From Clostridiales bacterium (GTDB lineage Bacteria; Bacillota; Clostridia; Lachnospirales; WQUN01), in the NCBI GenBank assembly GCA_031287685.1, contig JAITSQ010000028.1:609-64608 (forward strand): 64,000 bases of DNA, read 5' to 3'. The notes beneath the pieces are model-generated. The model saw only the letters and a program-made list of their open reading frames with translations, was not told the DNA's origin and did not search any database. The translations under genes and the position numbers were made by a program. This document shows, one piece after another, positions 4,202-55,511 of the stretch; within the stretch, counting starts at the first letter, position 1; each line of letters starts with the position of its first letter.

Positions 4202-4975
4202 ATGGTACGCGGTCTTTACACGTCAGGAATGGGTATGATTACGGCTATGAACAAGTTTGACGTCATATCAAACAACATAGCCAACGCCGGCACCACCGGC
4301 TATAAAAAGGACAACGTAATAACGCAGAGCTTCTCGGAGGAGCTTATGCGCCGTTTGAACGACCCCGCGCTTAATCAGATAAGCGCGCCGGACGTTAAAC
4401 TCGGCCCGGTTAGCCTTGGCGTTTTTGTGGACAACATCTTCACGGATTTTTCAACCGGCGCTTTTTCCGTCACGGATAACCCGCTTGACCTATGCATACA
4501 GGGGGATGGCTTTTTCGCCGCTTCCGTCGCCAATTCCGCCGGGGAGACCTCCGAAATGTACACCAGGGACGGTTCGCTGACCCTTCTTAACGGCCTTCTC
4601 GTGACGAATGGCGGCGCGCCCCTTGTCGGACAGAGCGGCAGCCCCATAACCGTCCCCAACGGCAATATCTCCATAAACGAACACGGCGACGTTTACGTCA
4701 ACGGCGAGTTTATCGACCGCTTGAAAATGGTGAGTTTCACCGACAACGCCTCCTTGCGCAAACACGGAGACAACTTTTACACAACGACCGAGCAGAGCCA
4801 GCAGGCTGACTTTAAGGGCGCCGTGGCTCAAGGGATCGCTGAAAAATCAAACGTCAACTCCGTGCGCGAAATGGTTGATATGATTGCGGTCAACCGCCTT
4901 TACGACGCTAATCAGCGCGTAATAACGACGGTTGACGCCACCCTTCAGCAAGCCGTCAGCGAAATAGGCAAATAA
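4202..4975 (+). CDS. flhO: Flagellar basal-body rod protein (FlgF/FlhO-like)
   Basis: N-terminal ISNNIANAGTTGYKKD and C-terminal VREMVDMIAVNRLYDANQRVI rod-protein motifs. Confidence 0.85.
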   Translation: MVRGLYTSGMGMITAMNKFDVISNNIANAGTTGYKKDNVITQSFSEELMRRLNDPALNQISAPDVKLGPVSLGVFVDNIFTDFSTGAFSVTDNPLDLCIQGDGFFAASVANSAGETSEMYTRDGSLTLLNGLLVTNGGAPLVGQSGSPITVPNGNISINEHGDVYVNGEFIDRLKMVSFTDNASLRKHGDNFYTTTEQSQQADFKGAVAQGIAEKSNVNSVREMVDMIAVNRLYDANQRVITTVDATLQQAVSEIGK

Positions 4976-5008: not shown

Positions 5009-5253
5009 TAAGAACCTGTTCCCATAGGTATAAATGCCGGATCCCCTCGTTTTCGCTTCGCGAAAACGCTCGTGACGAGCGAATTTTTACAGCTTCAAGG
5101 CGCGATGAGCGCCGCGTACCCGTACTCGGTGTTTTTTCGTGCCTAATGCCGCACGAAAAAGCCACCTTCTTGGTACGCAAGCGAAGCGCAACGAATAAGC
5201 CGTAAAAATTCGCCGTAAAGTCGGCGTCTATATCCTATGGGAACAGGTTCTAA
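5009..5253. repeat. Family A repeat, copy A2 (long form, ~190 nt extra interior)
   Basis: Arms AAGAACCTGTTCCCATAGG (5010-5028) and CCTATGGGAACAGGTTCT (5234-5251). The interior holds a nested hairpin GCGAATTTTTAC (5079-5090) / GTAAAAATTCGC (5202-5213). Confidence 0.8.
5125..5172 (-). repeat. Hairpin module H, single copy inside A2 (reverse orientation)
   Basis: The reverse complement reads CAAGAAGGTGGC-TTTTTCGTGC-GGCATTAG-GCACGAAAAA-ACACCGAG. This is near-identical in layout and loop to module 1 of B1 (8430-8479). Confidence 0.7.
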
Positions 5254-5277: not shown

Positions 5278-6114
5278 ATGATGCGCTCCCTCTGGACGGC
5301 CGCCTCCGGCATGACCTCCCAACAGCTTAACATCGACACGATTTCAAATAATCTGGCCAACGTGAACACCACGGGCTATAAAAAGGAAAGAATGGAGTTT
5401 AAGACGCTCCTTTACCAGACTATGCAGAGGGCGGACCAAGACCCCGCCAACACCCCCGCGCGCCCCGTCAACCTCCAGGTGGGCCACGGCGTGCGCCCTA
5501 TAGCCACCGCCCGCGCTTTCACAACGGGTTCGTTTCAGCGCACGGATAACGCGCAGGATTTCGCCATTGAGGGCGACGGCTTCTTTATAATCAACCGCGG
5601 CGCAGACCCGGCCACCGGGGAGGACGACATTACCTATACCCGAGACGGCTCCTTCAAAACGGCGGTCGTCGCCGACGGGACAATGCTGACCACCGCCGAG
5701 GGATACCCCGTTTTAAGCGTGGACGGCGAACCGATTGTAATCCCGCCGGAAGTGCTTATGAAAGACGTGACCGTTGACGAGAACGGTAATATGGGATACG
5801 CCAACGCCGAGGGCCAATATGAGGATTTAGGCTTCCAATTCGCGCTTGTGCAGTTTAGCAACCCGCAGGGGCTTGAATCCGTCGGCTCTAACCTTTTCAA
5901 GCAGACCGTGGCTTCCGGCGAGCCTCTTTCGGAGGCGGACGGCGAGACGAACAAAACAAGCCGCCTGCGCCAGAATTTTCTTGAGATGAGCAACGTGGCC
6001 GTCGCCAATGAAATGGTTGACCTGATTATAGCCCAGCGCGCGTACGACCTCAACTCAAAGGTCATCACCACAAGCGACGAGATGCTTCAGACCGCGAACG
6101 CTCTGAAGCGGTAA
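5278..6114 (+). CDS. flhP: Flagellar basal-body rod protein FlgG/FlhP
   Basis: Motifs ISNNLANVNTTGYKK and NEMVDLIIAQRAYDLNSKVITTSDEML. Confidence 0.9.
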   Translation: MMRSLWTAASGMTSQQLNIDTISNNLANVNTTGYKKERMEFKTLLYQTMQRADQDPANTPARPVNLQVGHGVRPIATARAFTTGSFQRTDNAQDFAIEGDGFFIINRGADPATGEDDITYTRDGSFKTAVVADGTMLTTAEGYPVLSVDGEPIVIPPEVLMKDVTVDENGNMGYANAEGQYEDLGFQFALVQFSNPQGLESVGSNLFKQTVASGEPLSEADGETNKTSRLRQNFLEMSNVAVANEMVDLIIAQRAYDLNSKVITTSDEMLQTANALKR

Positions 6115-6595: not shown

Positions 6596-6630
6596 CAAAA
6601 AAACACGCCCGTAAAACGGCGCGTTTTTTA
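6596..6630. terminator. Probable bidirectional intrinsic terminator
   Basis: A-run, ACACGCC / GGCGCGT imperfect stem, then a T-run, between convergent genes. Confidence 0.4.
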
Positions 6631-8247
6631 TTTGTTCTCTTTCTCCCTTGCCAGCATAGCCCTGTATTCGTTCGTGGCCATCCCCGTCAGCTGCTTGAAC
6701 ACCCCTCGGAAATGCGCCGCGTCGTCGTACCCTATTTTCAGGGCGATTACATTGTCGGTCATATCCAAGTTTTTAAAGAGCCTTTTCGCCGCGTCTATCC
6801 GCACCCGCACAATATAATCATAGCACGACATTTTGTCCGAATCCATAAAAAGGCGGTTCAGAAATTCGCTCGTCGTTTTAAGGCGCAAAGCGAGCTTGGC
6901 GAGCGTTATATTCTCATAGTAGTTTTCCTCTATATACTTCTGGGCGGTTTCCAGTATCTCGATATTGCGCTCCTTGCGAATCTGCTGGGTATAGGCACAA
7001 AGCTCCCGCAGGCAGCCCGACAGATATTCTATCGCCTCGCGCGCGGTTTTGAGGCTCAGCGCGTCGCGTACTGAAAAAAAGGAGGTCACGTCATATTCGG
7101 CGGTTTCGTCCTGTTCCATAGCGTAACGCCCTATTGAAAACATAAGCTCCATAACGAAACGGTGGACAAGTTTTTCCGACGCCCCTCCCCCGCTCTCAAA
7201 ATCATCCGCTATCTGGCGGAGCATGCTTTCGCAGTACTCGTATTCCCCTATTACGGCGGCGCGGGCCAGCCGCCCCTCTTTTTCCGGCGAACGCTTGTAG
7301 GTCAAGCGGTTGTTCGGCTCCATATAATGAATGGGAATCACCACGCCGCGCCCCATATAAAAGCGGTACTGAAGCGCGGAAAGGGCCTCCCGGTAAGACA
7401 CCGATATTTGAGACGGCGCTCCATACGTCCGCCCAAGCCCGATTGTAATCTTTATATTCAGCTTTTCCTCCGAATCGGCTATAATTTCCGAGCAAAGCTC
7501 CATCAGTTCCTCAAACTCCAAATTCTCCGAAAAAACGCACACGCCGCAGTTAAACCGCGGGATAAAGGCGAAGCCGGCGTATCCCTTCCTGGCTATGCTG
7601 TCGGCTATGAGGCAGTTTACCTTATATACCATAAGGTGCTTCTCCGCCTCGCCTATGTTGCGGATAAGCTGCTTAAACTTGTCTATACGCGCCACAAAAA
7701 CGGTATAAACGCTTTTCAGGCGAAAACCGAAATACTTGAACGAGCTTAAAATCTCGTTATCGTCGAGCACTCCGCCCTCGATGAGCATATGCAGGAATTT
7801 TTCCTTAAACATCGGCATTTCACGCCGGTAGTCTACGACGACACGCTCATCCCGCCGCTTTTTAGCGTAATAGTTGTCAAAAAAACGAATCGCGTGCTCC
7901 ATACACCGTTTGAAATCAAGCGGCTTTACCGGACGGTACATAAAGTCCAGCACGCCGTATTCCGTGACGTTTTTTAAATATTCCGCGTCGTTATACGAGC
8001 CGTACAGGATAAATTTAGTATTCGTATACGTTTTGCTGACGTCCTGGATTATTTTTTTGCCCGCCGCGCCGAAAAAGCGTATATCGGCTATAATAAGGTC
8101 AGGCGCGGACTCGGCCATGGCTTTGTCAAGCCCCGCTGACGACGACAGCGCGCTTACGTTTTTAATCGACGGGAAGGACATTCGCAAGTATGTCCTGAAG
8201 TTGCGCACGCTCTCCTGGTCGGTATCGAGTATTAAAAGTTTAAGCAT
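6628..8247 (-). CDS. Response regulator with AraC-type HTH output (YesN-like)
   Basis: Receiver motifs LLILDTD, LIIADIRF and RPVKP; C-terminal AraC HTH (IALKIGYDDAAHFRGVFKQLTGMATNEYR). Confidence 0.85.
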   Translation of the reverse strand: MLKLLILDTDQESVRNFRTYLRMSFPSIKNVSALSSSAGLDKAMAESAPDLIIADIRFFGAAGKKIIQDVSKTYTNTKFILYGSYNDAEYLKNVTEYGVLDFMYRPVKPLDFKRCMEHAIRFFDNYYAKKRRDERVVVDYRREMPMFKEKFLHMLIEGGVLDDNEILSSFKYFGFRLKSVYTVFVARIDKFKQLIRNIGEAEKHLMVYKVNCLIADSIARKGYAGFAFIPRFNCGVCVFSENLEFEELMELCSEIIADSEEKLNIKITIGLGRTYGAPSQISVSYREALSALQYRFYMGRGVVIPIHYMEPNNRLTYKRSPEKEGRLARAAVIGEYEYCESMLRQIADDFESGGGASEKLVHRFVMELMFSIGRYAMEQDETAEYDVTSFFSVRDALSLKTAREAIEYLSGCLRELCAYTQQIRKERNIEILETAQKYIEENYYENITLAKLALRLKTTSEFLNRLFMDSDKMSCYDYIVRVRIDAAKRLFKNLDMTDNVIALKIGYDDAAHFRGVFKQLTGMATNEYRAMLAREKENK

Positions 8248-8379
8248 CGCGCCGGCCTCCGAAACAAAATGAGTGACTATTTATTATATCACAACTTACA
8301 TTTTTACGCAACTGTCTTTTCTGACTTTTTAAGGCCTAATACTAATCCCTGATTTCTTTCCGGTGCGATTTTTGCGTTT

Positions 8380-8622
8380 TAGAGCAATTCCATGTTTGAT
8401 TGGCGTTCTTCAAGCCGAAAATCGCGGGCAAGAAAGGGGCTTTTTCGGGCGGCATTAGGCCCGAAAAAACACCGGCACGAAGGGGGCTTTTTCGCGGGGC
8501 AGTAACCGCGAAAAAACACCGGCACGAAGGGGGCTTTTTCGCGGGGCAGTAACCGCGAAAAAACACCGGCTTTAACGCGTTTTCGGAGCGGAATAACGCC
8601 AATATCAAACGGAATTGCTATA
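8380..8622. mobile_element. Family B MITE-like element, copy B1 (three H modules), nested in C1
   Basis: TA-GAGCAATTCC...GGAATTGCTA-TA. The uninterrupted site in C2 has a single TA. Confidence 0.8.
8430..8570 (+). repeat. Three tandem H hairpin modules (8430-8479, 8480-8526, 8527-8570)
   Basis: Unit AAGGGGGC-TTTTTCGCGG-GGCAGTAA-CCGCGAAAAA-ACACCGGCACG. Modules 2 and 3 are identical. Confidence 0.85.
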
Positions 8623-8807
8623 AGCGAAGTTTGACGACTATTTTAATCGGGATTAGTATAATAACATTATTTACGTTTATCATAACATAGCCGCCATAAA
8701 AAAATCAAGCCGGTTCCGCGCGAATCCGCAAAATTTTGTTGTGTTTCCCGCCGAGTTCAATTATAATTAAGACAATACCGTTACATCATTTATAAGGAGG
8801 ATTTTTT

Positions 8808-10796
8808 ATGAGCCAATCGGAAAACCAGACCATTTCCGCAATCCGTTTCCTGGCGGCGGACGCCGTGCAGAAAGCCAACTCCGGCCACCCCGGCCTGCCT
8901 CTCGGCGCGGCCCCGGCCGCCTATACCCTTTGGGCCAAACACCTTCGGCACAATCCCAAAAACCCGAAATGGCAGGCCAGGGACCGTTTCGTACTCTCCG
9001 CCGGCCACGGCTCAAGCCTTCTGTATTCGCTCCTGCATATTTTCGGCTACGGGCTTAGCCTGGACGATATGAAAAGCTTCCGCCAGGCGGGGAGCCTGAC
9101 CCCCGGACACCCCGAATACCGCCACACCCCCGGCGTGGAAGTGACCACCGGGCCGCTCGGCCAGGGCATAGCGAACGCCGTCGGCTTCGCTATGGCGGAG
9201 GCGCACACGGCCGCCGTTTTCAACACGCCCGACTTTAAGTTCGTGGATAACTATACCTACGCTCTCTGCGGCGACGGCTGCCTTATGGAGGGAATAGCGC
9301 ACGAGGCGGTTTCCCTGGCGGGAACTCTCCGGCTGAATAAGCTGATTCTGCTTTACGACTCAAACGGCATAACCATAGAGGGCAGCACGGGCATAGCCTT
9401 CCGGGAGGACGTGCGCGCGAGTTTCACCGCCTGCGGCTGGAACGCCCTGCTCGTAGAGGACGGCAACGACGTCTCCTCCATAGACGCGGCTATCGCGAAA
9501 GCCAAAACCTCCGACAAGCCCACAATAATTGAGGTTAAGACTATTATCGGCTACGGCGCGCCCAACAAGCAGGGCAAGCAATCCGCGCACGGAGAGCCGC
9601 TCGGCGCGGAGGAACTGTCCGCCGCCAAGAAAAACCTCGGCTACGACCATCCGCCGTTCACTGTGACGGAGGAAGTCCGCGCTCATATGGACAGCGTAAT
9701 CAAAGGCTTAGAGGCGCTTGAGGCCGATTATAACAAGCGGTACGACGCTTACCGGGCCAAAAACCCCGAAGCCGTAAAAAAATATGAGGATTTCCTGTCG
9801 GGAAAGCTCCCCGATTTGCTGAACAATGAGGATTTCTGGACATTTGAAGGGAATCTGGCCACGCGCGTATCCTCCGAAACCGTGCTGAATAAGGTGTGCG
9901 CGCTCGTGCCGTCGCTTTTCGGCGGCTCCGCCGACCTGGCCCCCTCTACAAAGACCCTGATGAAAGGGCGGGGCGATTTCTCGGCGGAAACCCCGGAGGG
10001 TTCTAATGTCCATTTCGGCATACGGGAGCACGCGATGACCGCCATAGCCAACGGAATAGCGCTTTACGCGCCGCTTATCCCCTACGTTTCGGGCTTCTTT
10101 GTTTTCTCTGACTATATGAAGCCCGCAATGCGCATTTCCGCGCTTATGGGCCTGCGCGTAATCAATATCCTGACGCACGATTCTATCGGCGTGGGCGAGG
10201 ACGGACCCACGCACCAGCCAATTGAGCAGCTGGCGGCGCTCCGGAGCATACCTAACTTTACCGTAGTTCGCCCCTGCGACTCCAACGAAACCGCCGCCGC
10301 TTGGTATATCGCGCTTAACAACACAAACGGACCCACGGCCCTCGCCCTGACCCGCCAAAACCTGAAGCTCCTGCCGGAAAGCGGCAAGGGCGCGCTTAAA
10401 GGCGCGTATATACTTAAAGATTCCGAAAAAGCCGTGCCTGACGTTTTGCTTATGGCCTCCGGCTCCGAAGTGGGCTTAATCTATGACGCTTGGGAAATCC
10501 TGCGGAAAGACGGCGTTGACGCGCGGGTCGTAAGCATGCCCTCCTGGGAGGTTTTCGAGAAGCAGGACGCCGCGTATAAGGAAAGCGTCCTCCCCCGCGC
10601 GGCGCGCGCTCGTCTGGCGGTGGAAGCGGCCTCCCCGTTCGGGTGGGAGCGCTACGTCGGCCTTGACGGGAAAATTATAGCTATGCCCGGCTTTGGCGAG
10701 AGCGCCCCGGCGGACGCGCTGTTCCCGAAATTCGGGTTTACGGTTGAAAACGTGGTCAAGGCGGCGAAAGAAGCCGCCGAGGCCAATAAAATATAA
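8808..10796 (+). CDS. tkt: Transketolase
   Basis: Motifs SGHPGLPLGAAP, GDGCLMEGI and THDSIGVGEDGPTHQPIE. Confidence 0.95.
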   Translation: MSQSENQTISAIRFLAADAVQKANSGHPGLPLGAAPAAYTLWAKHLRHNPKNPKWQARDRFVLSAGHGSSLLYSLLHIFGYGLSLDDMKSFRQAGSLTPGHPEYRHTPGVEVTTGPLGQGIANAVGFAMAEAHTAAVFNTPDFKFVDNYTYALCGDGCLMEGIAHEAVSLAGTLRLNKLILLYDSNGITIEGSTGIAFREDVRASFTACGWNALLVEDGNDVSSIDAAIAKAKTSDKPTIIEVKTIIGYGAPNKQGKQSAHGEPLGAEELSAAKKNLGYDHPPFTVTEEVRAHMDSVIKGLEALEADYNKRYDAYRAKNPEAVKKYEDFLSGKLPDLLNNEDFWTFEGNLATRVSSETVLNKVCALVPSLFGGSADLAPSTKTLMKGRGDFSAETPEGSNVHFGIREHAMTAIANGIALYAPLIPYVSGFFVFSDYMKPAMRISALMGLRVINILTHDSIGVGEDGPTHQPIEQLAALRSIPNFTVVRPCDSNETAAAWYIALNNTNGPTALALTRQNLKLLPESGKGALKGAYILKDSEKAVPDVLLMASGSEVGLIYDAWEILRKDGVDARVVSMPSWEVFEKQDAAYKESVLPRAARARLAVEAASPFGWERYVGLDGKIIAMPGFGESAPADALFPKFGFTVENVVKAAKEAAEANKI

Positions 10797-14495: not shown

Positions 14496-14525
14496 ACACC
14501 GGCTCCCACTCGCGAAAAATTCACT

Positions 14526-14593
14526 TAGAACCTGTTCTCATTAGGTAGAAAGGCGGGAATCCGGCGTTTATATCCTATGAGAACAGGTTCTTA
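14526..14593. repeat. Family A repeat, copy A3 (short form)
   Basis: Arms TTAGAACCTGTTCTCATTAGG and CCTATGAGAACAGGTTCTTAA. Confidence 0.8.
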
Positions 14594-20961: not shown

Positions 20962-21612
20962 TCATCTCGGCGTTTTCCTTGACTCGTCCAAAAATTTCAG
21001 CGGCTGAGCTATCGCCGGAACTATTATGAATCCCGAAATCGCCTCCGGCACGCCGTTCGTCACGGCTATTCCAAGGAGCAGGGCGCGCGCGGCGGCGGAG
21101 TCCGGATAGCCGTTCCGCGCCCAGACTGAGCTGCCCCTGTGCAGTAAATATATCCCGCCAAGGACGAATACCGTGTTTATAACCGCGCCCGCCGCGCCGC
21201 ACAGCGAGTACGCCAGGGCGCGCTTCACGGACGGGCCGCCCGGAAAAGGCTTCATTATAAAGTTAAAAAACCCGCACAGGTACGCGGGGGCCAGGCCCAC
21301 AACGGCGCGGGGCACGACCGACACGAGCGGGTCTCGCATAAGCGGCGTGAGCAGGCCCGTCGGCGCGACAATGGCTCGGGTCATCGAGAGAAGCCCCCAA
21401 ATAAGCCCGAGGACGACCCCCACCGGCGCGCCGTAAACAAGCGAGCCGGCGATAACCGTGATGTGTATCAGCGTAATGCTCAAAGGCCCGATAGTTATGT
21501 ATCCCCAACCGGGCACGGCGGTCTGTATTATTATTATGGCGACAAATACGCCAAGCACGGATATTTTGCGTATTTTAGAAGCCGATGCGTCCCGCGTCAT
21601 TTTTAGAATCAA
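20962..21612 (-). CDS. ECF-transporter S-component-like membrane protein (substrate unknown)
   Basis: About 6 TM segments, ~200 aa, with an S-component-like N-terminus ([18 protein letters not shown]). Confidence 0.5.
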
Positions 21613-22220
21613 CCCTTTTTGTTTTTTGAATAGGACTCCGCCATATACTGAGCTTTATAGGCCTGTACTTTCGGGACGTAAGCCCGCGTTTCCTCGTAAG
21701 GCGGCACCCCGCCGTATTTATCGACCGCGCCCGGCCCGGCGTTATACGCCGCCAGCGCCTTAGACTCGTCGCCGTTAAAACGAAGCAGCATTTCATAAAG
21801 ATAATGCGAACCGCCGTCAACATTCTGAAATACGTTGTATGAATCGACCACGCCAAGCCCCTCCGCCGTCCCCGGCATAAGCTGCATAAGCCCCCGCGCG
21901 CCGGCGGGCGACGACGCGTCCGGATTCCCGCCGCTTTCCTGTTTTATAACGGCGCGGATCAAGTTTTCGTCAAGGCCGTACTTTTGGGCGGAGGTCTTTA
22001 CGGCCACGTCGATCGCGCTTTTAAGACCCTCGTCGGAGCTGTCTCCATTGAGGTAATTCAGCAGGATTTTATTAAACTCCGGGTTTTGCGCCCCGGCCCC
22101 TGCGCCCTGTTCGGTCTTAGCCTTGGGCTTGAGCTTGGAAACATAAAAATCCGGCGGCGCGTAAACGCCGCTGAAATCCTTCATTATGTCGTTATAAATA
22201 GAAGAAGCAAGAGAATCCAT
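21609..22220 (-). CDS. Lytic transglycosylase (SLT domain)
   Basis: Motifs IKQESGGNP and [13 protein letters not shown]. Confidence 0.85.
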
Positions 22221-22258: not shown

Positions 22259-22363
22259 ATACTAACCTCAGATTAAAAAGGAGACAAACGAGCGCTGCAA
22301 AACGCCAGAGGGCGTTTTGCGTTTTAAGCGAAGTTTGACGACTATTTTAATCGGGATTAGTAT
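22259..22363. repeat. Family C repeat, copy C2 (uninterrupted)
   Basis: Termini ATACTAACCTCAGATT and AATCGGGATTAGTAT; internal hairpin GCAAAACGCC-AGAG-GGCGTTTTGC. Confidence 0.8.
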
Positions 22364-22395
22364 CTGCTTAATTATAGCACGGAAAGCCCCGTTTG

Positions 22396-22863
22396 TCAAG
22401 CGCGAAAACAAAAAAACCGCGGCGGCGGGGCTTTCTCCCTTATCCTTCCGAATATCGCAACCGAGTTTTTGGTTGGGTCGGCGTACATAGCCCGATATGT
22501 GTGCCGCGCGCTGAACGGAGGGTTGCCCGTTTTATTGCCTGTTGTAATCCCGTTATGGGCGCTTCCGCCGTCGGGCGCGACGTCGTCTCCATCCATTTGG
22601 TGCTCGTAGCACCCAGCTTGGTCAAAATCAAGATAAGGCCCGCCGAGCTTGGAGTTCGCGGTATCTCCGACTACATAATAATAATCGGCGCCGGCCAGTA
22701 TTTTGTAATTCTTAAAACCGTCGCCGCCGTAGTTAAAAGTCTGAGTCGCGTGGAGCTGTTCGATTGTGGCTTTCGGCGGCTCTATCGCGTCCGCGGCTTC
22801 CTCCGCGCCGGAATATGACGAGTCCTCGCCGACACGCTCGCTTAAGAATTTTTTGTTTTTCAT
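22396..22863 (-). CDS. Hypothetical protein
   Basis: ORF only; start taken at MKNKKFL (22863). No motif recognised. Confidence 0.45.
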   Translation of the reverse strand: MKNKKFLSERVGEDSSYSGAEEAADAIEPPKATIEQLHATQTFNYGGDGFKNYKILAGADYYYVVGDTANSKLGGPYLDFDQAGCYEHQMDGDDVAPDGGSAHNGITTGNKTGNPPFSARHTYRAMYADPTKNSVAIFGRIREKAPPPRFFCFRA

Positions 22864-27394: not shown

Positions 27395-27650
27395 ACTGAA
27401 TATTCGCGCTTTTTGCGCCGGGGAGGCTTCCGCTTTAGGCGATGCCCCGCTCGGTGGGGAAATGGAATCCGGTGAAAATCCGGAGCGTGTGCGGCTGAAA
27501 AGCCAATCACCGACGCCGTGAGCGCATTGAGGCCGCAAGCCGAGGCGAAAGCCGGTCACTGTTCCTCCTTGGAATGGGAAGGCTGGGTTGCGGACGCGGA
27601 AATCCTCTTGGATTTCCGGAATTGCGTAAGCCGGAAGACGAGCAGGGGGC
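27395..27650 (+). promoter_or_regulatory. Cobalamin riboswitch (aptamer)
   Basis: GGGGAAATGGAATCCGGTGAAAATCCGGAGC, B12-box-like GGTCACTG...GGGAAGGC and 3' AAGCCGGAAGACGAGCAGG. Confidence 0.75.
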
Positions 27651-27658
27651 GTTATCCG

Positions 27659-27690
27659 CGCGGGGCGTTTCCGCTCCGGATTTTTTTACG
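27659..27690 (+). terminator. Riboswitch expression-platform terminator
   Basis: CGGGGCG-TTTC-CGCTCCG stem (one G-U pair) followed by GATTTTTTT. Confidence 0.55.
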
Positions 27691-27796
27691 CACCCGCGTT
27701 GGTTAAATGTTTATGGGAATACGGCCATTGACGACTTTTGTGTTGTCGTGGCCTTTTATATTGCGTCCGCGGAAAACGACCTACAGGAGGGGTTTT

Positions 27797-30796
27797 ATGA
27801 GAAACACAAGGTTTTCCGGGCGCTTCGCGGCGTTTTTGCTGTCGTTCTTAGCGGCGGTTTCCGGCCTGCGCGTCCCGGCGCTCGCGTCGGGTTCCGTCAG
27901 CGTTGCGCTGTCTTATCAGGCGGACGGCAGCGGGTTTCGCCTGGCGCGGCGGGCAGTCGCCGTTTCGCCGGGGCTTTCGGAGGAATACGGGTACGCGGAC
28001 GCGTATTACGGCACGGCCGCGACTGCCCTTGACGCTATTGTCGCCGCGCATATCGCGGCGCTCGGCGAAGGCAATGTAAGCGGCAGCCTAACGGTCGGCC
28101 CGACGGGCTTTTTGTCAAACTTTATGGGCGACGGCTCCGGTAATTTCGTCTATTTCGTCAACGGCTCCCTCTCGGGCGCGGCGGCGGGTTCTGTGCGGCT
28201 GAACGACGGCGACGCCGTGGAACTATTCTCTATACAGGACGCCTACGCTTATTCAGACGCGCGCGCCTGGTTCGAGCGCGACGGTAAGCGTGCCGGCGCG
28301 CTTACCGTCGGCAAGGGCGTTAGTTTCGACCTCGCCCTCAAGGGGATTGATTGCGTAATTTACGGCGAAGGCTCCGGCGCGGGCCTTTACGGATACAGGG
28401 ACGGGATTGAGGGCGCGCTTGCCGTCCTTCTGGCGGACGACCCCGACGGCGGCGCTTATATCGACGCCCCCTTAGGCGAAACGGGCGCGGGCGGCGTTAT
28501 TTCGCTTTCTTTCGACACTCCGGGGCTGTATATCCTTTCGGCGATTGATTATGACACCGATTACGGCTTTCCGCTGATGTCGCCGTGGCTTGCGGTCACG
28601 GTGACGAATAGCGGCGGCGCGCCCGCGGTCACGTCAAGCGGCTTTGCCAACCCGCCGCCCGCGCCCCTCGCGCCGTCGGAAGTCCGGACCGACGCGCGGA
28701 CGGCCCTCGGCGACACTTTGTCGTACCTAGTCAGCAGCCAGGCCCCCTCCCCCCAATACGGGCAAGAGTGGGAAATCCTCGCTCTGGCCCGCTCCGGGCG
28801 CTCCGTCCCGGCTGGATATTACGAAGGGTATTACGCCAGCGTCAAGGACAAACTGGCGCGAGTCAGCTCGAATCAGCTCTCCGCCAATTCCACGGATAAT
28901 TCCCGCCTGGCCCTGGCGCTGACGGCAATCGGCGTTAACGCGGCTAACGCGGAGGGGCGCAATCTGCTCGCTCCCCTCGCGGATTATGACTACGCCACGG
29001 GTCCGGGCATAAACGGCGCGGTTTACGCGCTTCTGGCTTTCGACGCGAAAAATTACGCCATACCGCCCGCGCCCTCCGGAGGCGCCCAAACGTCGCGGGA
29101 GAATCTCATAGCGTTTATTCTGGCGCGGGAGCTTCCCGGCGGCGGCTTTTCGTGGAGCGGCGCGGGCGAGATAGACCCGGACATAACGGCAATGGCCCTG
29201 CAGGCCCTCGCGCCCTATAAAAACAGCAGCGCGGACGCCGGCGCGGCAATCGCGCGCGCTCTGGCCAAGCTGACGGCGGCGCAGGATTATTATGGCGGGT
29301 ACGCCTCGTGGGGCAGCGTCAGCGCGGAAAATATGGCGCAGGTCATAGTGGCGGCGGCGGCGCTCGGCCTTGACCCCTCGGCGGACCCGCAATTTACGAA
29401 AGGCGGCGGCAGCGCCGTTTCCGCGATGCTCCGGTTTTACGCGGACGGCGGCGGCTTCCAAAGCGCTTCCTCCCCAGGCGCGGCTAACGCCATGTCCACA
29501 TATCAAGCGGCTTACGCGCTCGCCGCCTATAGCCGCCTGCTGAATCACCAAAATCCGCTGTACGATATGCGCGACTGCGATATCACCCTGACGGAGGGCG
29601 GCGGCGGTCAGTCCGGCGGCGGGGGAAGCGGCCCCGGCGGCTCCACAAGCGCCGTCACGGAGATAACTGTCGTTTTCCGGCTAATCGGCGGCACAATACA
29701 CCTTGACGGCGCGGAGGGCCACTCTCGGTATATCGAATGGATTCCGTACTCGCGGTATAGTTTTGAGCAAAACCAAGTCAGCGTCTGCGACGCGCTGCTT
29801 CGCGCGCTGAACGAAGCGGGGCTTGACCAGGAGGGCGCGGAGGGCAATTATCTTTCGGGAATCCGCGCGCCCGCCTCTCTTGGCGGCTATTGGCTCCGCG
29901 AGTACGACGACGGGCCGTATTCCGGCTGGCTGTACTCGGTAAACGGCGTTTATCAGCAAACCGGCATTAAAGATTATCTGCTTTCCGACGGCGACGTCGT
30001 GCTCGTGCACTACACCGACGATTATACGCGGGAAACGAATCTTGACAATTCAGGCGGCGGCACGGGCGGCGGCGGGGTCTCCGGCGGCGGGGCGGCCAGC
30101 GAAACCGAGCCGCCCCCTATCGCCGCTTCCGAAACCGCGCCGCCGAAGGAAAACACGCTCCCCGACGACGAGGGCGAGGACCCGGACGAAAAAACCGACG
30201 CGCCGCGAGAATTCCCCTCGGAGGGCTGGGAAAACCCCTTCAGCGACGTTTCCTCCGACGACTGGTTTTATGAGGCGGTCCGAGAGGCCCAGACAAGCGG
30301 CTTAATGGTCGGGCTTCCCGACGGCTCTTTCGCGCCGGATTCCCCGGCGACGCGTGCTATGGCGGCGCAAATCCTTTTCCGGTTTGAGAAAGAACCCGAA
30401 GCGGCGGGCGCCGAATTTGACGACGTTAAATCTGGCGACTGGTACGCGGACGCGGTGGCTTGGGCCAGCGAGCGCGGCGTCGCCCAAGGGTACGGCGGCG
30501 GGCGCTTCGGCGCGGGCGACGGCCTCACTAACGAGCAGCTAGCGGTTATGCTGCGCCGCCTCGCCGGGCTGATTGGCATAGACACGACGGAAACGGAATC
30601 GGAACATTATCCGCGCTTCGCGGATACAGGCGGCGCTTCGGAATGGGCCGAAGCCGCCGTGAAATGGGCGTATCCTAAGGGTTTGCTTGCTCAAGAATCC
30701 CCGGAGGCGATTAACCCAAAAACCGTCCTGACCCGCGCCGAAGCCGCGCATATAATTACAACATTTTTGAAGCTTGCTGTACAGCGAAGTGAATAA
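27797..30796 (+). CDS. Secreted SLH-anchored protein with two DUF4430 domains and a prenyltransferase/transcobalamin-like alpha/alpha toroid
   Basis: AGGAGG SD before ATG 27797. Signal peptide is followed by a DUF4430-like segment, toroid repeats (GGGFSW, DPDITAMALQAL), a second DUF4430 segment (YSVNGVY...DGDVVLVHY) and three SLH motifs. Confidence 0.8.
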   Translation: MRNTRFSGRFAAFLLSFLAAVSGLRVPALASGSVSVALSYQADGSGFRLARRAVAVSPGLSEEYGYADAYYGTAATALDAIVAAHIAALGEGNVSGSLTVGPTGFLSNFMGDGSGNFVYFVNGSLSGAAAGSVRLNDGDAVELFSIQDAYAYSDARAWFERDGKRAGALTVGKGVSFDLALKGIDCVIYGEGSGAGLYGYRDGIEGALAVLLADDPDGGAYIDAPLGETGAGGVISLSFDTPGLYILSAIDYDTDYGFPLMSPWLAVTVTNSGGAPAVTSSGFANPPPAPLAPSEVRTDARTALGDTLSYLVSSQAPSPQYGQEWEILALARSGRSVPAGYYEGYYASVKDKLARVSSNQLSANSTDNSRLALALTAIGVNAANAEGRNLLAPLADYDYATGPGINGAVYALLAFDAKNYAIPPAPSGGAQTSRENLIAFILARELPGGGFSWSGAGEIDPDITAMALQALAPYKNSSADAGAAIARALAKLTAAQDYYGGYASWGSVSAENMAQVIVAAAALGLDPSADPQFTKGGGSAVSAMLRFYADGGGFQSASSPGAANAMSTYQAAYALAAYSRLLNHQNPLYDMRDCDITLTEGGGGQSGGGGSGPGGSTSAVTEITVVFRLIGGTIHLDGAEGHSRYIEWIPYSRYSFEQNQVSVCDALLRALNEAGLDQEGAEGNYLSGIRAPASLGGYWLREYDDGPYSGWLYSVNGVYQQTGIKDYLLSDGDVVLVHYTDDYTRETNLDNSGGGTGGGGVSGGGAASETEPPPIAASETAPPKENTLPDDEGEDPDEKTDAPREFPSEGWENPFSDVSSDDWFYEAVREAQTSGLMVGLPDGSFAPDSPATRAMAAQILFRFEKEPEAAGAEFDDVKSGDWYADAVAWASERGVAQGYGGGRFGAGDGLTNEQLAVMLRRLAGLIGIDTTETESEHYPRFADTGGASEWAEAAVKWAYPKGLLAQESPEAINPKTVLTRAEAAHIITTFLKLAVQRSE

Positions 30797-34574: not shown

Positions 34575-34727
34575 ATAGCAGTTGAACAATGGGTTGACGC
34601 GAACTTGCTCGGTGTTTCTGATTGTCTAAAAAAGATTTAGACAATCAGAAGCCTCCTCCTTGTTCGCGGAAAACCCATTTGTGAGACTGCCGCTCTTTTA
34701 CTTTTCATGGTTCAGGAAAAGTAAAAG
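34575..34727. repeat. Family D repeat, copy D1
   Basis: About 90% identical by eye to 53487-53639. Long hairpin GCAGTTGAACAATGGG...CCCATTTGTGAGACTGC plus hairpin CTTTTACTTTTC/GAAAAGTAAAAG. Confidence 0.85.
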
Positions 34728-34731
34728 AACT

Positions 34732-36633
34732 CTATGCCTTGTCCTTTATTTCCTTTAATATTCTGTCAATAAACGGCTGCGCGGGCTGTTCGCCCTCCTC
34801 GCCGGCGCGGCTCCGGACGGAAACCGTGCCCGCTTCGGCCTCCTTTTCCCCCACGACAAGTATATACGGAACGCGCCCGTTCCTTGCCTCGCGGATTTTG
34901 AAGCCGATTTTCTCGGCGCGCAGGTCGGTCTCAACGCGGATTCCAGCTGTGTCAAGCTTTTCGGCGACGGCGGAGGCGTAATCCGCGTATTTGTCCGAAA
35001 TCGGCAACACCGCCGCCTGCACCGGCGAAAGCCACAGCGGGAACGCCCCCGCGAAATGTTCGGTAAGAATTCCTATAAACCGCTCAATACTGCCGAAAAC
35101 GACGCGGTGAATCATCACCGGGCGGTGCGCGGCCCCGTCCGCTCCGACGTACTCAAGCCCGAACCGCTCCGGCATCTGGAAGTCCAGCTGAACCGTGCCG
35201 CACTGCCACGTCCTGCCGAGCGAATCCTCAAGGTGAAAATCAATTTTCGGGCCGTAAAAAGCCCCGTCGCCCTCGTTCACGGCGTAAGGGAGGTTAAGGT
35301 CACCGAGAGCCTCTTTCAGCGCGTTTTCGGCGCGCTCCCAGTCCTGGGCGGCGCCCATGCTGTCCTCTGGGCGGGTGGACAGCTCCACGTAATACTTAAA
35401 GCCGAATTTTGTGTAAACGCCGTCAATAAGCGCGATTACTCCTTTTATCTCGTCCTTGACCTGCTCCGGCGTCATAAAGATATGCGCGTCGTCCTGCGTG
35501 AAGGCGCGGACGCGCATAAGCCCGTGGAGCGTGCCGGATTTTTCGTGCCGGTGGACTATACCAAGCTCCCCCATTCTGAGCGGCAAATCCCGGTACGAGC
35601 GGGTGTTAAGCCCGTAAACGAGCATTCCGCCGGGGCAGTTCATAGGCTTCAGGGCGTGCTCCTTGCCCTCGATTTCGGTAATGTATATATTGTCCTTGTA
35701 GTGGTCCCAGTGGCCGGAGCGCTCCCATAGGGCCTTATCAAGCATAAGCGGGCTTAAAATCTCCTTATAGCCCGCCGCTTTATGGATTTCACGCCAGTAG
35801 TTTATAAGCTCGTTTTTCAAAATCATACCCTTGGGCAGGAAAAACGGGAAGCCCTGACCCTCCTCCAGAATGGCAAAAAGCTCAAGCTCCCGGCCGAGTT
35901 TGCGGTGGTCGCGCTTTTTGGCCTCTTCTATCCGCTCAAGGCGCTCGGCAAGCTGGCTGGCTTTCGGGAAGCTAACCCCGTAAATCCGCGTCAGCATCTG
36001 GTTTTTCTCGCTCCCTCGCCAGTACGAGCCTGACACGGACGTCAGCTTGACCGCTTTGACCGGCGCCGTGGTCATTAAATGCGGCCCCGCGCAAAGGTCG
36101 ATAAAATCCCCCTGTTTATAAAAAGAAAGCGGAGCGTCCTCCGGCAGGTCGTTTATAAGCTCTATCTTATACGGCTCGCCGCGTTCCCCCATAAGTTTAA
36201 GGGCCTCCGCGCGCGGCAGCTCGAAATACTCAAGAGGCAGCTCCTCTTTGGCGATTTTTTTCATTTCCTCCTCAATCGCCGGAAGCTCCTCGGCCAGCAT
36301 CGGCCGCGAAAACTCAAAGTCGTAATAAAACCCGTTCGCGACAGCGGGTCCGATGGCCAGCTTCGCGTCCGGGTAAAGGCGCTTGACCGCCTGCGCCATT
36401 ATGTGCGAGCTTGTGTGCCAGAACGCCTTTCTGCCGCCCTCGCCGTCGAAAGTTTCTATGGACGCCTCCGCGTCCGCGTCTATGGGAAAGCGCAAATCCC
36501 GCAAGCGGCCGTCCACGACCGCCGCGCACGCAGCCTTCGCGAGCCCCGCGCCTATATCCCCCGCGATTCGGGCGGGGCTTACGGCTTCGGCGTATTCTTT
36601 TACCACGCCGTCTTTCAGCGTTACTTTAATCAT
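34732..36633 (-). CDS. thrS: Threonine-tRNA ligase
   Basis: TGS start MIKVTLKDG, class II motifs, and an AAGGAG SD before ATG 36633. Confidence 0.97.
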   Translation of the reverse strand: MIKVTLKDGVVKEYAEAVSPARIAGDIGAGLAKAACAAVVDGRLRDLRFPIDADAEASIETFDGEGGRKAFWHTSSHIMAQAVKRLYPDAKLAIGPAVANGFYYDFEFSRPMLAEELPAIEEEMKKIAKEELPLEYFELPRAEALKLMGERGEPYKIELINDLPEDAPLSFYKQGDFIDLCAGPHLMTTAPVKAVKLTSVSGSYWRGSEKNQMLTRIYGVSFPKASQLAERLERIEEAKKRDHRKLGRELELFAILEEGQGFPFFLPKGMILKNELINYWREIHKAAGYKEILSPLMLDKALWERSGHWDHYKDNIYITEIEGKEHALKPMNCPGGMLVYGLNTRSYRDLPLRMGELGIVHRHEKSGTLHGLMRVRAFTQDDAHIFMTPEQVKDEIKGVIALIDGVYTKFGFKYYVELSTRPEDSMGAAQDWERAENALKEALGDLNLPYAVNEGDGAFYGPKIDFHLEDSLGRTWQCGTVQLDFQMPERFGLEYVGADGAAHRPVMIHRVVFGSIERFIGILTEHFAGAFPLWLSPVQAAVLPISDKYADYASAVAEKLDTAGIRVETDLRAEKIGFKIREARNGRVPYILVVGEKEAEAGTVSVRSRAGEEGEQPAQPFIDRILKEIKDKA

Positions 36634-47138: not shown

Positions 47139-47335
47139 TAGAGCAATTCCATGTTTGACTGGCTTGTTTCGAGCCGAAAATCGCGGGCAAGAAGGCGGCT
47201 TTTTGGCGCGGCAGTAGGCGCCAAAAAACGCCGAGCAAGAAGGGGGCTTTTTCGCGGTTACTGCCCCGCGAAAAAACACCGGCTTCAACGCGTTTTCGGC
47301 GACGAAAGAAGCCTATGTCAAACGGAATTGCTATA
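47139..47335. mobile_element. Family B MITE-like element, copy B2 (two H modules)
   Basis: TA-GAGCAATTCC...GGAATTGCTA-TA; modules at 47189-47236 and 47237-47283. Confidence 0.8.
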
Positions 47336-53383: not shown

Positions 53384-53489
53384 TAGAGCAATTCCTTGTT
53401 TGGCTTGCTGCTTTCGAGCCGGAAATCGCGATGCTTTAACGCGTTTCCGGCGATGAATAAGGCGGCTTATGTCAAACGGAATTGCCATA
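53384..53489. mobile_element. Family B MITE-like element, copy B3 (no module)
   Basis: TA-GAGCAATTCC...GGAATTGCCA-TA. Confidence 0.8.
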
Positions 53490-53639
53490 GCAGTTGAACA
53501 ATGGGCTGCCGAGAACTTGCTCGGTGTTTGTGATTGTCTAAAAAAGATTTAGACAATCACAAGCCCCCTCCTTGCTCGCGGGAAACCCCTTGTGAAACTG
53601 CCCACACTTTTACTTTTCATAGTTCTTGAAAAGTAAAAG
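53487..53639. repeat. Family D repeat, copy D2
   Basis: Homologous to 34575-34727; abuts B3 at the shared TA. Confidence 0.85.
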
Positions 53640-53643
53640 CGCT

Positions 53644-55317
53644 TTAGTCCTTCAGCTCAACCTTGATTCCAAGCAAGCCCTCCGCGTTTCTGGCTATTTC
53701 CTCAGCCGTCCTTTCGCGGGGCTTTGCCGGCTCGTCGAACCGCGTCTTGTATTCCGACGCGCCCACGTATTCTATTTCCGTTTCCGGGGAAACGCCGAAT
53801 TTTTCCGCCATAAGCGGCAGGATAACCGCGCTGTAGGCCGACGCCCGCGCCCGCACCAAGGTTTCCACCCCGTCCTCCACTATTATAAGCAGCCGCCCGC
53901 CGTCCGGCGCGGCGCGGCTTTTGCCCAGAAGCTCCTTTATGGGAAGCTCCTTTGAACCGTCGGAAAACGAGCCTGTGAAGCCGGCCCAGCCCTCCGCGAT
54001 TTTTTTAAGCTCCGCCGAGCCGGGCGGGCGGAGCTTACGTTTGTCCGCCGCTTTTTTCTTTTCGGGCGGCCCCGCGGCTTTTTCCGCCGGTTTCCCCCGT
54101 TCCTCGGACAAGGCCCGGACGGCCTTCCGCAGTTCCTCCAGCTGCGCCTTAAGCTCGCCGATTTGCTCCGCTTGCTCCTCGCCGGCCTGAGGAGCGCCCC
54201 CGGCGCGGGCCGGGCCGGCCGCCTCCGGGCGGCAGAGCGCCACGCACGCCGCCTCAAGCATAACCCGCTCGGACGCCGCGTAGCGCAGATTCCCCAAAAG
54301 CTCGGAAAACGCCTCAATCCCCCGGATTATCAGGCTCATCGGAAGGCGCGCCGCCTGCTCCCGCAGGAGGGCGATAGTCTCTCCCGAAGCGCTGACGCTT
54401 ATATTGCCGTTTTGCTGAACCTTGGCCGCCAGCAGGTTGCGGAAATGCGAAAGCGCCTGCCTCGCGAAGCCGGAAATATCCCGCCCAAGGCAGGCCTGCC
54501 CGTCTATAAGGCTCATACATTCCCCCATATCGGCCTTAAGGACAGCCTCCGCCAGCGCGAAAAACACGGAAATATCCGACGCTCCCAAAAGCTCCAGCGT
54601 CTTTTCAAGGCTGATTTCCTCGCCGAAGTAAAACGACGCGCACTGCTCCAGAATACTCAGGCAATCCCTCATAGCCCCGTCCGACGCGGAGATTATAAAC
54701 CGCAGGGCCTCGTCTTCTATCTTTATGCCCTCGGCGGCCGCGTACCCCCTCACCGCGTCAAACATCACCGCGCCGCTTATGCGCTTAAAATCAAAGCGCT
54801 GACAGCGGGAATGAATAGTCGCGGGGATTTTCTGCGGGTCGGTCGTGGCCAGTATGAAAATGACATATCCCGGCGGCTCCTCAAGGGTTTTGAGGAGCGC
54901 GTTGAACGCGCTCGCCGACAGCATATGCGCCTCGTCGATGATATATACCCGGAAATTTCCCGACGACGGAGGGTAGGCGGATTCCTCTATAATCCCCCGG
55001 ACGCTGTCAACGCCCGTGTAGTCCGCCGCGTTGATTTCCGATACGTTCAGCGAAGCGTCCCGCAGTATCTCAAGGCAGACCGGGCAGGCGTTGCAAGGCT
55101 CCCCCTCCCGCGGGTTTTCGCAGTTGACCGCGCGGGAGAGGAGCTTCGCGGCGGAAGTCTTTCCGCAGCCGCGCGTGCCGCAAAAAAGGTAGGCGTGGGC
55201 GAGCCTGTTCGATTTCAGCTGATTTATAAGCGTTTTGACAATATGCTCCTGCCCGAGAACGTCCGAAAAGTTTTTCGGGCGCAGCTTCCTGTAAAGAACC
55301 GTATGACTTGCTGACAT
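53644..55317 (-). CDS. dnaX: DNA polymerase III subunits gamma/tau
   Basis: HAYLFCGTRGCGKTS and VYIIDEAHML. Confidence 0.95.
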   Translation of the reverse strand: MSASHTVLYRKLRPKNFSDVLGQEHIVKTLINQLKSNRLAHAYLFCGTRGCGKTSAAKLLSRAVNCENPREGEPCNACPVCLEILRDASLNVSEINAADYTGVDSVRGIIEESAYPPSSGNFRVYIIDEAHMLSASAFNALLKTLEEPPGYVIFILATTDPQKIPATIHSRCQRFDFKRISGAVMFDAVRGYAAAEGIKIEDEALRFIISASDGAMRDCLSILEQCASFYFGEEISLEKTLELLGASDISVFFALAEAVLKADMGECMSLIDGQACLGRDISGFARQALSHFRNLLAAKVQQNGNISVSASGETIALLREQAARLPMSLIIRGIEAFSELLGNLRYAASERVMLEAACVALCRPEAAGPARAGGAPQAGEEQAEQIGELKAQLEELRKAVRALSEERGKPAEKAAGPPEKKKAADKRKLRPPGSAELKKIAEGWAGFTGSFSDGSKELPIKELLGKSRAAPDGGRLLIIVEDGVETLVRARASAYSAVILPLMAEKFGVSPETEIEYVGASEYKTRFDEPAKPRERTAEEIARNAEGLLGIKVELKD

Positions 55318-55349: not shown

Positions 55350-55449
55350 ATAGAGCAATTCCATGTTTGACCGGCTTGTTTCGAGCCGAAAATCGCGGGC
55401 TTCAACGCGTTTTCGGCGATGAAAGAAGCCGGTCAAACGGAATTGCTCT
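55350..55449. mobile_element. Family B MITE-like element, copy B4 (minimal 100-nt form)
   Basis: Near-perfect long hairpin TAGAGCAATTCCATGTTTGACCGGCTT...AAGCCGGTCAAACGGAATTGCTCTA. Confidence 0.85.
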
Positions 55450-55511
55450 AGTATAAAGGCCGCCTCGCTTAGCCTTTTCGCCTATTTAATGGCACATTTC
55501 TAATTTCTATC

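Follow-up and report, generated by a model that had tools for sequence, protein, structure and literature searches.

A TA-flanked miniature element inserted in a second small repeat, with its empty site, in an uncultured Clostridiales lineage

Introduction

Bacterial MITEs smaller than 200 bp have been described that combine terminal inverted repeats (TIRs) and a terminal TA with target-site duplications and long stem-loops; they include RUP and the 107/155-bp Correia elements (PMC2229807). The target of RUP is TA, and IS630-Spn1 has been proposed as its partner (PMC2229807). Small repeats are also found inserted into one another, as seen for BOX, RUP and SPRITE, and BOX elements are modular (PMC3049150).

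Here we describe a family of small repeats, B, in a 64,000-nucleotide stretch of DNA from an uncultured Clostridiales lineage. The whole of this stretch is referred to below as the window. One of its four B copies, B1, interrupts a copy of another small repeat, C, and the two long copies, B1 and B2, carry tandem hairpin modules, E.

RUP, from Streptococcus pneumoniae, is like B a non-coding Firmicute element of about 100 nt, with TIRs and TA at both ends and an intergenic location (PMC2229807). Its TIRs are likewise paired in a tight fold, and it too inserts in other repeats (PMC2229807; PMC3049150). The likeness is one of description and not of sequence; RUP differs in that a candidate partner with matching TIRs is known for it, and B in having long forms with internal tandem modules. 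BOX (boxA-boxB(n)-boxC), also from S. pneumoniae, resembles B in that its arms surround a variable number of tandem modules, and in that lone modules occur elsewhere (PMC3049150). The module counts in B are 0, 0, 2 and 3 units of 47/48 nt. Again compared by description, B differs from BOX in that its modules are located at the tip of a palindrome, its TIRs are flanked by TA, and each module is a perfect hairpin with covarying stems.

The Correia or NEMIS elements of Neisseria are TA-flanked and bounded by TIRs, and fall into size classes of about 107 and 155 nt with an internal difference of about 50 bp; their ends were defined from empty and filled sites, as for B, and their transcripts are long stem-loops (PMC2229807). 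They differ from B in phylum and sequence, in their 24–26-bp TIRs and in their IHF or promoter motifs, whereas the extra segment in B is a tandem hairpin array. Stowaway-type MITEs, which are mobilised by Tc1/mariner transposases, duplicate a TA, have short TIRs and can potentially fold into a single hairpin. B has these same three features, but the hosts of Stowaway are eukaryotic and the sequences are unrelated.

Nested MITEs, TA duplications and modular hairpin repeats are textbook features of RUP, BOX and Correia, and B is therefore an ordinary bacterial MITE of this kind, with no new mechanism. What it provides, for an uncultured Clostridiales lineage, is a clean, computed family of TA-duplicating MITEs in which one empty site is verified, and a view of the intergenic regions of this lineage as layered with small mobile palindromes. 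The elements are found in the promoter or leader regions of tkt, rpoB, dnaX, ftsY and a response-regulator gene, which is of relevance for the annotation of MAGs, and also for strain typing. The placement of the E modules at hairpin tips might be one thread leading towards something new.

A filled and an empty site

The locus at 8339–8659 lies within a 560-nt gap between a minus-strand gene for an AraC-type response regulator (6628–8247) and the transketolase gene (8808–10796, plus strand). It is made up as follows, and the second copy of C is listed with it.

8339–8379, plus strand: left part of C1, ATACTAATCCCTGATT...TTTTGCGTTT, the terminus being an inverted repeat of the right end of C
8380–8622, plus strand: B1 including both TAs, with the 239-nt element at 8382–8620
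8380–8381, no strand: target TA, left duplicate, equivalent to the single TA at 22325–22326 in C2
8382–8429, plus strand: left arm of B1, with the terminal repeat GAGCAATTCC(AT)GTTTGA; 88–90% identical to the left arms of B2 and B4
8430–8570, plus strand: three tandem 47-nt E modules of B1 (8430–8476, 8477–8523 and 8524–8570), of which units 2 and 3 are identical
8571–8620, plus strand: right arm of B1, ending in ...CAAACGGAATTGCTA
8621–8622, no strand: target TA, right duplicate, from the alignment of C1 and C2
8623–8659, plus strand: right part of C1, ending in the C inverted repeat AATCGGGATTAGTAT
22259–22363, plus strand: C2, the empty-site copy of C, with a single TA at 22325–22326

The two copies of C can be compared directly. 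C2 reads ...TTTTGCGTTT-TA-AGCGAAGTTTGACG..., and C1 reads ...TTTTGCGTTT-TA-(GAGCAATTCC...GGAATTGCTA)-TA-AGCGAAGTTTGACG..., where the parentheses enclose B1. When the 239-nt element and one TA (8382–8622) were removed in silico, C1 and C2 gave an ungapped match of 49/49 over the junction. This match is TTTTGCGTTT-TA-AGCGAAGTTTGACGACTATTTTAATCGGGATTAGTAT, consisting of 10 nt on the left, the TA, and 37 nt on the right; the right part of C1 and the TA at 8621–8622 are thus identical to C2 at 22325–22363 (39/39). The 10 nt on the left side of the TA are expected to match by chance about once per million trials at a fixed position, and the junction is therefore real. Because the deletion restores the 49/49 match, B is a real insertion with a 2-bp TA duplication, and at this one site, C1/C2, the duplication is seen against an empty site.

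The original prediction had proposed this filled-site/empty-site pair, with the TA duplicated on insertion of B1, and had named a computed alignment of the C1/C2 junction as one way to overturn it. The pair is borne out, since the alignment survives and there is one TA in C2 and two in C1. The length of 243 nt given for the element counts both TAs, so that the insertion stands and the length of the element proper becomes 239 nt. The proposed relative age, with C older than B at this locus, also holds: B1 is inserted in a copy of C that already existed, and is younger than C1 whether C is a MITE or a leader.

The B family in the window

The remaining copies of B are as follows.

47139–47335, plus strand: B2, TA + 193 nt + TA, with two E modules
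53384–53489, plus strand: B3, TA + 102 nt + TA, a short form without E modules, adjoining the left edge of repeat D
55351–55450, plus strand: B4, TA + 96 nt + TA, a short form with a perfect 10-nt terminal repeat

A scan of the window with the right-end motif CAAACGGAATTGCTMTA, allowing up to 3 mismatches, found exactly 8 ends against 0.20 expected, and none of 100 shuffles reached 8. These ends form four head-to-tail pairs, which is four copies in 64 kb. All 8 flanks are TA, in the target contexts T-TA-A, A-TA-T, A-TA-G and A-TA-G. The 10-nt terminal repeat is matched at 10/10 positions in B4, at 9/10 in B1 and B2, which end in GGAATTGCTA, and at 8/10 in B3, which ends in GGAATTGCCA. Allowing for a 2-nt indel, the inverted repeat extends to about 19 nt (GAGCAATTCC-AT-GTTTGAC against GAGCAATTCC-GTTTGAC). 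The copies are 76–98% identical in the left arm and 69–86% in the right arm.

The four copies have different neighbours, all of them housekeeping genes: the response-regulator gene with tkt, rpoB with a GH18-like gene, dnaX with ybaB, and dnaX with ftsY. All four have the same orientation, which is not significant (n = 4, p about 0.125), and GC skew is negative across almost the entire window. At 96–239 nt, the elements have no sizeable ORF; the listed ORFs that touch them, an 88-aa reverse-strand ORF over B1 and a 71-aa ORF starting in B2, are read as mechanical. The initial description of B as a multi-copy, TIR-bounded and non-coding element with TA on both flanks of all four copies is thus confirmed. 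Its 10-nt TIRs are present in every copy, and perfect in B4 only; four copies were correctly listed, at 8380, 47139, 53384 and 55350, of which the last moves to 55351.

Relatives in other genomes

A scan of a genome collection (596 Gb) with the 17-mer GAGCAATTCCWTGTTTG returned at least 113 loci, nearly all of them chance or gene matches, the pattern being too short. A metagenome scan used a 19-mer, and the matches listed were mostly one unrelated sequence from many contigs, the counterparts of which in the genome scan (L016/L082) are Phocaeicola/Bacteroides. B-like elements were found in both scans: at least three (L028, L052, L068) in a 36% GC MAG described as 'uncultured Eubacteriales' (CAZTAY01), and at least three (L135, L143 and L180, the last of which shows a left end and then runs off the contig) in two metagenome records. 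These relatives have the same terminal 20 nt or so as B in the window. Invariant 20-nt ends that are common to the window and to the 36% GC genome point to a widespread putative transposase.

The search pattern excluded the TA, and TA is present at 5/6 left flanks and 2/5 right flanks, the right end of L180 being missing. The non-TA flanks (4 of the 11 observable) are AA, TG, TT and TT, each of them one substitution from TA, and are assumed to be decayed TA. The relatives are located between unrelated housekeeping genes; on their flanks are DegV with purL, a gene resembling phenylacetate-CoA ligase with an ACT-domain gene, patatin, and an MCP. In L052 (2805–2807) and L180 (9942–9944), TA and the first G of the element make up the TAG stop codon of the upstream ORF; insertion at the TA of a stop codon keeps the reading frame closed. 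L028 (387–430) is a 'mini' B-like element of 38 nt with little beyond two ends of about 19 nt (TAGAGCAATTCCTTGTTTGAGTCTCAAAGGGAATTGCTATT), which suggests that it is the ends by themselves that are retained as a unit.

Searching for B4 in plasmids with blastn gave chance matches only, and a full-text literature search for the TIR string found only primers. The transketolase of the window corresponds to MDR3091749.1 (100% identity), encoded on a 68-kb contig; identity falls to 72% for the next homolog, so that there is no close relative to compare for polymorphic sites.

Hairpin structure

B is an imperfect palindrome over its full length, and is predicted to form one long hairpin. B1 folds at −104.8 kcal/mol (z = −8.3), as a long stem with three hairpins at its top. 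Six short-form elements, two of them from the window and four from two unrelated sources, were aligned (alignment A1). The alignment folds as one hairpin with 35 pairs, in which 93.8% of cells are paired, compared to 34–46% when the partners are slid by 1–3 columns. The outer helix has 16 pairs, of which 12 are invariant and none compensatory, whereas 11 of the 35 pairs, all in the inner two helices, are compensatory, with changes on both sides. None of 500 column shuffles reached the observed pairing values. The terminal 20 nt or so are therefore invariant across the six copies, and the inner arms vary yet remain complementary.

Conservation of the ends is thus at the level of sequence, which fits a protein-binding site, and that of the interior at the level of the palindrome. 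Binding by a transposase does not require the inner arms to covary, and their covariation hints at a further constraint beyond the MITE model. We read the palindrome as a DNA-level property, for example in bringing the ends together or in homogenisation of the arms, and not as a selected RNA, because the orientation of the copies relative to neighbouring transcription is inconsistent. There are 20 G-U pairs against 5 A-C mismatches on the strand starting GAGCAATTCCATG; an RNA-level function as the main reading of this excess is rejected on account of the same inconsistent orientation. A secondary RNA effect of inserted copies is possible. The original prediction had passed over the covarying hairpin, the array of 47-nt modules in B1 and B2, and the occurrence of C as only two copies, both in leaders.

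The E modules

In addition to the three modules of B1, E is found at the following positions.

47189–47236 and 47237–47283, plus strand: two E modules of B2, as 47/48-nt units
5127–5172, minus strand: solo E module outside B, 91% identical to unit 1 of B1, with a compensatory stem change; at the tip of the palindrome G

In the B hairpin, the array occupies precisely the tip loop, following ...CGCGGGC, with three units in B1, two in B2, and none in B3 or B4. Each module has the plan T5-stem5-loop8-stem5-A5. The stems of the units in B1 and B2 (CGGGC, GGCGC and CGCGG) differ from one another and are always perfectly complementary; with CGTGC, there are four variants overall. Unit 2 of B2 has the same stem (CGCGG/CCGCG) as units 2 and 3 of B1, with the 8-nt loop inverted. 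The inversion is of the loop only (47248–47275 compared to 8488–8515 and 8535–8562; loops GGCAGTAA and TTACTGCC), as expected from recombination or template switching between the arms of the stem. In both B1 and B2 a type-1 unit is followed by a type-2 unit, which argues that the composite transposed as a unit and that one module was later duplicated in B1.

It is conceivable, although we consider it improbable, that E is a mobile or selected module in its own right, settling specifically in the tip loops of larger palindromes. The basis for this suggestion is that E is present at the tips of B1, B2 and the unrelated G, that its stems covary perfectly, and that one loop is flipped. Were E to target extruded loops, or to be under selection as a structural cap, there would be three levels of nesting at the locus, of E in B in C. 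This nest would then have been built by a hairpin-loop-seeking nano-element, a variant that is undescribed for bacterial MITEs. The E hairpins were also considered as classical intrinsic terminators, and rejected, as on both strands the T-run is 5' of the stem and the A-run 3' of it; one weak match was obtained.

Proposed mobilisation of B

Overall, B is probably a non-autonomous DNA transposon (a bacterial MITE) that is mobilised in trans, most likely by an IS630/Tc1-mariner-type DDE enzyme. It has TIRs, a TA duplication seen against an empty site, a small non-coding sequence, dispersed copies with unrelated flanks, and ends that are conserved across genomes. We infer the mobilisation in trans, the cut-and-paste chemistry and the transposase family. 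A transposase encoded at another place in the genome would bind and cleave at the invariant ends of about 20 nt, excise B and insert it at a TA dinucleotide, and the TA would be duplicated as the staggered cut is repaired. At 8380, B would have inserted in the resident C1, itself another small TIR-bounded repeat, leaving the uninterrupted site in C2. B1 and B2 would represent a subfamily that gained 47-nt hairpin modules in its tip loop before transposition, with one module duplicated later in B1.

A transposase was sought in several ways. In a comparison of 40 of the 48 non-overlapping window ORFs of at least 90 aa with NCBIfam or Pfam, no transposase family was matched; the matches were all to housekeeping families, and for a few ORFs nothing was matched. 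In six-frame translation, neither the window nor loci L001–L233 (233 of the 235 loci fetched) contains the YSPxLNPIE-type signature of IS630/Tc1. No autonomous element or IS630-family transposase with ends matching those of B was found in the window, in the listed genome and metagenome loci, in viral contigs or in plasmids, and no longer element with B ends within 6 kb was present in any fetched locus. Scans of viral contigs with both end motifs gave nothing, or chance matches. The earlier view that B behaves as a MITE in a window that lacks a transposase, with TIRs, a TA duplication and no coding capacity, agrees with all of these results.

Strict TA duplication is the signature of IS630/Tc1-mariner elements, and the duplication is TA at 8/8 window flanks. 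It is because this group characteristically duplicates TA that we favour such an enzyme; the link can reasonably be drawn from the strict TA duplication alone, by analogy with RUP and IS630-Spn1. Duplications of 2 bp are also made by a few other IS groups, and IS5-family (IS427/ISL2-type) and IS30-type enzymes can leave duplications of 2–3 bp. B could thus be a MITE moved by an enzyme of one of these types, a reading in keeping with the lack of an IS630 partner in the places searched, and with the presence in the same window of the F family, whose 3-bp TAA/TTA flanks suggest that non-IS630 transposases have probably been active in this genome. We consider it unlikely, because all eight window flanks are strictly TA and the target surroundings have no CTAG or TNA pattern.

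Two further readings were considered. B might be a non-mobile cis-regulatory or small-RNA module, such as an attenuator, stabiliser or processing site, kept for its hairpin and copied by recombination. Its strong fold (as given above for B1), the compensatory changes and pairing values of alignment A1, the G-U excess on one strand, and the location of 3/4 copies in divergent promoter regions are all what such a module might show. It would not be expected to have sharp boundaries at inverted repeats, a TA duplicated where an empty version exists, unrelated flanking genes for every copy in every genome, or an inconsistent orientation to genes (B3 and L143 are antisense, and L052 sense), and there is no Rfam match, so that this reading is very improbable. 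With Rfam 15 at the gathering threshold, the only match in the whole window was a cobalamin riboswitch, and at E≤1 there was none over B1/C1, the B3–B4 region or C2. The palindromic architecture, the covarying stems of the four E variants, the one inverted E loop and the single orientation of the four B copies on a strand of constant GC skew would be compatible with B or E being REP-like palindromes, handled as single-stranded DNA by a RAYT or IS200/IS605-type Y1 transposase. To our knowledge, Y1 transposases neither duplicate their target nor use terminal inverted repeats. B has both a duplication and such repeats, and the single orientation is not significant, making this scarcely credible.

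The C repeat

C has only two copies in the window, and may be a second MITE or a shared leader. Its ends are inverted repeats (ATACTAATCCC(T)GATT... and ...AATCGGGATTAGTAT); in C1, 15 bases match between the 16-nt left end and the 15-nt right end in reverse complement, with one gap of 1 nt. The parse TA|CTAATCCC...GGGATTAG|TA is possible for both copies. In the left halves, C1 and C2 have in common the terminal ATACTAA..GATT and the 10 nt at the TA, and the rest (31 compared to 55 nt) cannot be aligned. Both copies have the same orientation, and form 5' leaders of minus-strand genes, for the AraC-type response regulator (C1) and a lytic transglycosylase (C2), downstream of minus-strand promoter-like sites.

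C could then be a non-mobile 5' leader or operator common to the two genes, in which case the nest would be a MITE inside a regulatory leader. There being only two copies, both oriented alike between a minus-strand promoter-like site and a gene start, and with left halves that are unalignable next to 49 nt of complete identity, gives this idea some force. It is however doubtful, as the homology begins and ends exactly at inverted repeats of 15–20 nt, the parse with TA at both ends fits both copies, the upstream promoters are unrelated in sequence, the genes for the response regulator and the lytic transglycosylase give no evident sign of being regulated together, and there is no Rfam match.

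Several promoter-like sequences are found around C. On the minus strand at 22371–22399 there is a perfect extended sigma-70 consensus (TTGACA-17-TGnTATAAT), facing C2 and the lytic transglycosylase gene (21609–22220), and the transcription start predicted from it is approximately at the boundary of C2. Weaker minus-strand promoter-like sites are present at 8708–8655, before C1. The right end of both copies (8631–8659 and 22335–22363, plus strand) contains an outward promoter-like sequence, TTGACG-17-TAGTAT (9/12), which in C1 faces the transketolase gene.

Other small repeats and features

The F family consists of elements of about 61 nt with the TIR GAACCTGTTCCCATAGG, at 800–866, 5009–5253 and 14525–14593. 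They are flanked by 3-nt direct repeats, these being TAA/TAA for F1 and F2 and TTA/TTA for F3, a TWA duplication that we take to be of the IS5/IS1031 or PIF/Harbinger type. An insert of about 176 nt, G, divides F2, which in comparison with F1 and F3 is a second filled/empty configuration of the window. G (approximately 5047–5222) is a long palindrome (−79 kcal/mol for 5040–5226), with the solo E module at 5127–5172 as its tip. It has no TA flanks and no likeness to the arms of B, and is located between flagellar rod genes at 4202–4975 and 5278–6114 (flgG).

Repeat D has two copies of about 160 nt (34577–34740 and 53489–53652), which are 89% identical over 154 nt and contain two strong hairpins. 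Both directly follow a minus-strand stop codon, of thrS at 34732 and of dnaX at 53644, and the next minus-strand gene past D is dnaG for the thrS copy and ybaB for the dnaX copy. Rfam gave no match for the copy at 53489–53652. The left edge of this copy, at 53489, adjoins B3 at the TA. B3 and D were considered as another filled/empty pair and set aside, as the homology to the first D copy starts essentially at the TA, which is compatible with the model but uninformative.

The cobalamin riboswitch (RF00174, 39.1 bits) is at 27425–27661, upstream of a gene for a 1029-aa SLH-domain protein (27707–30796).
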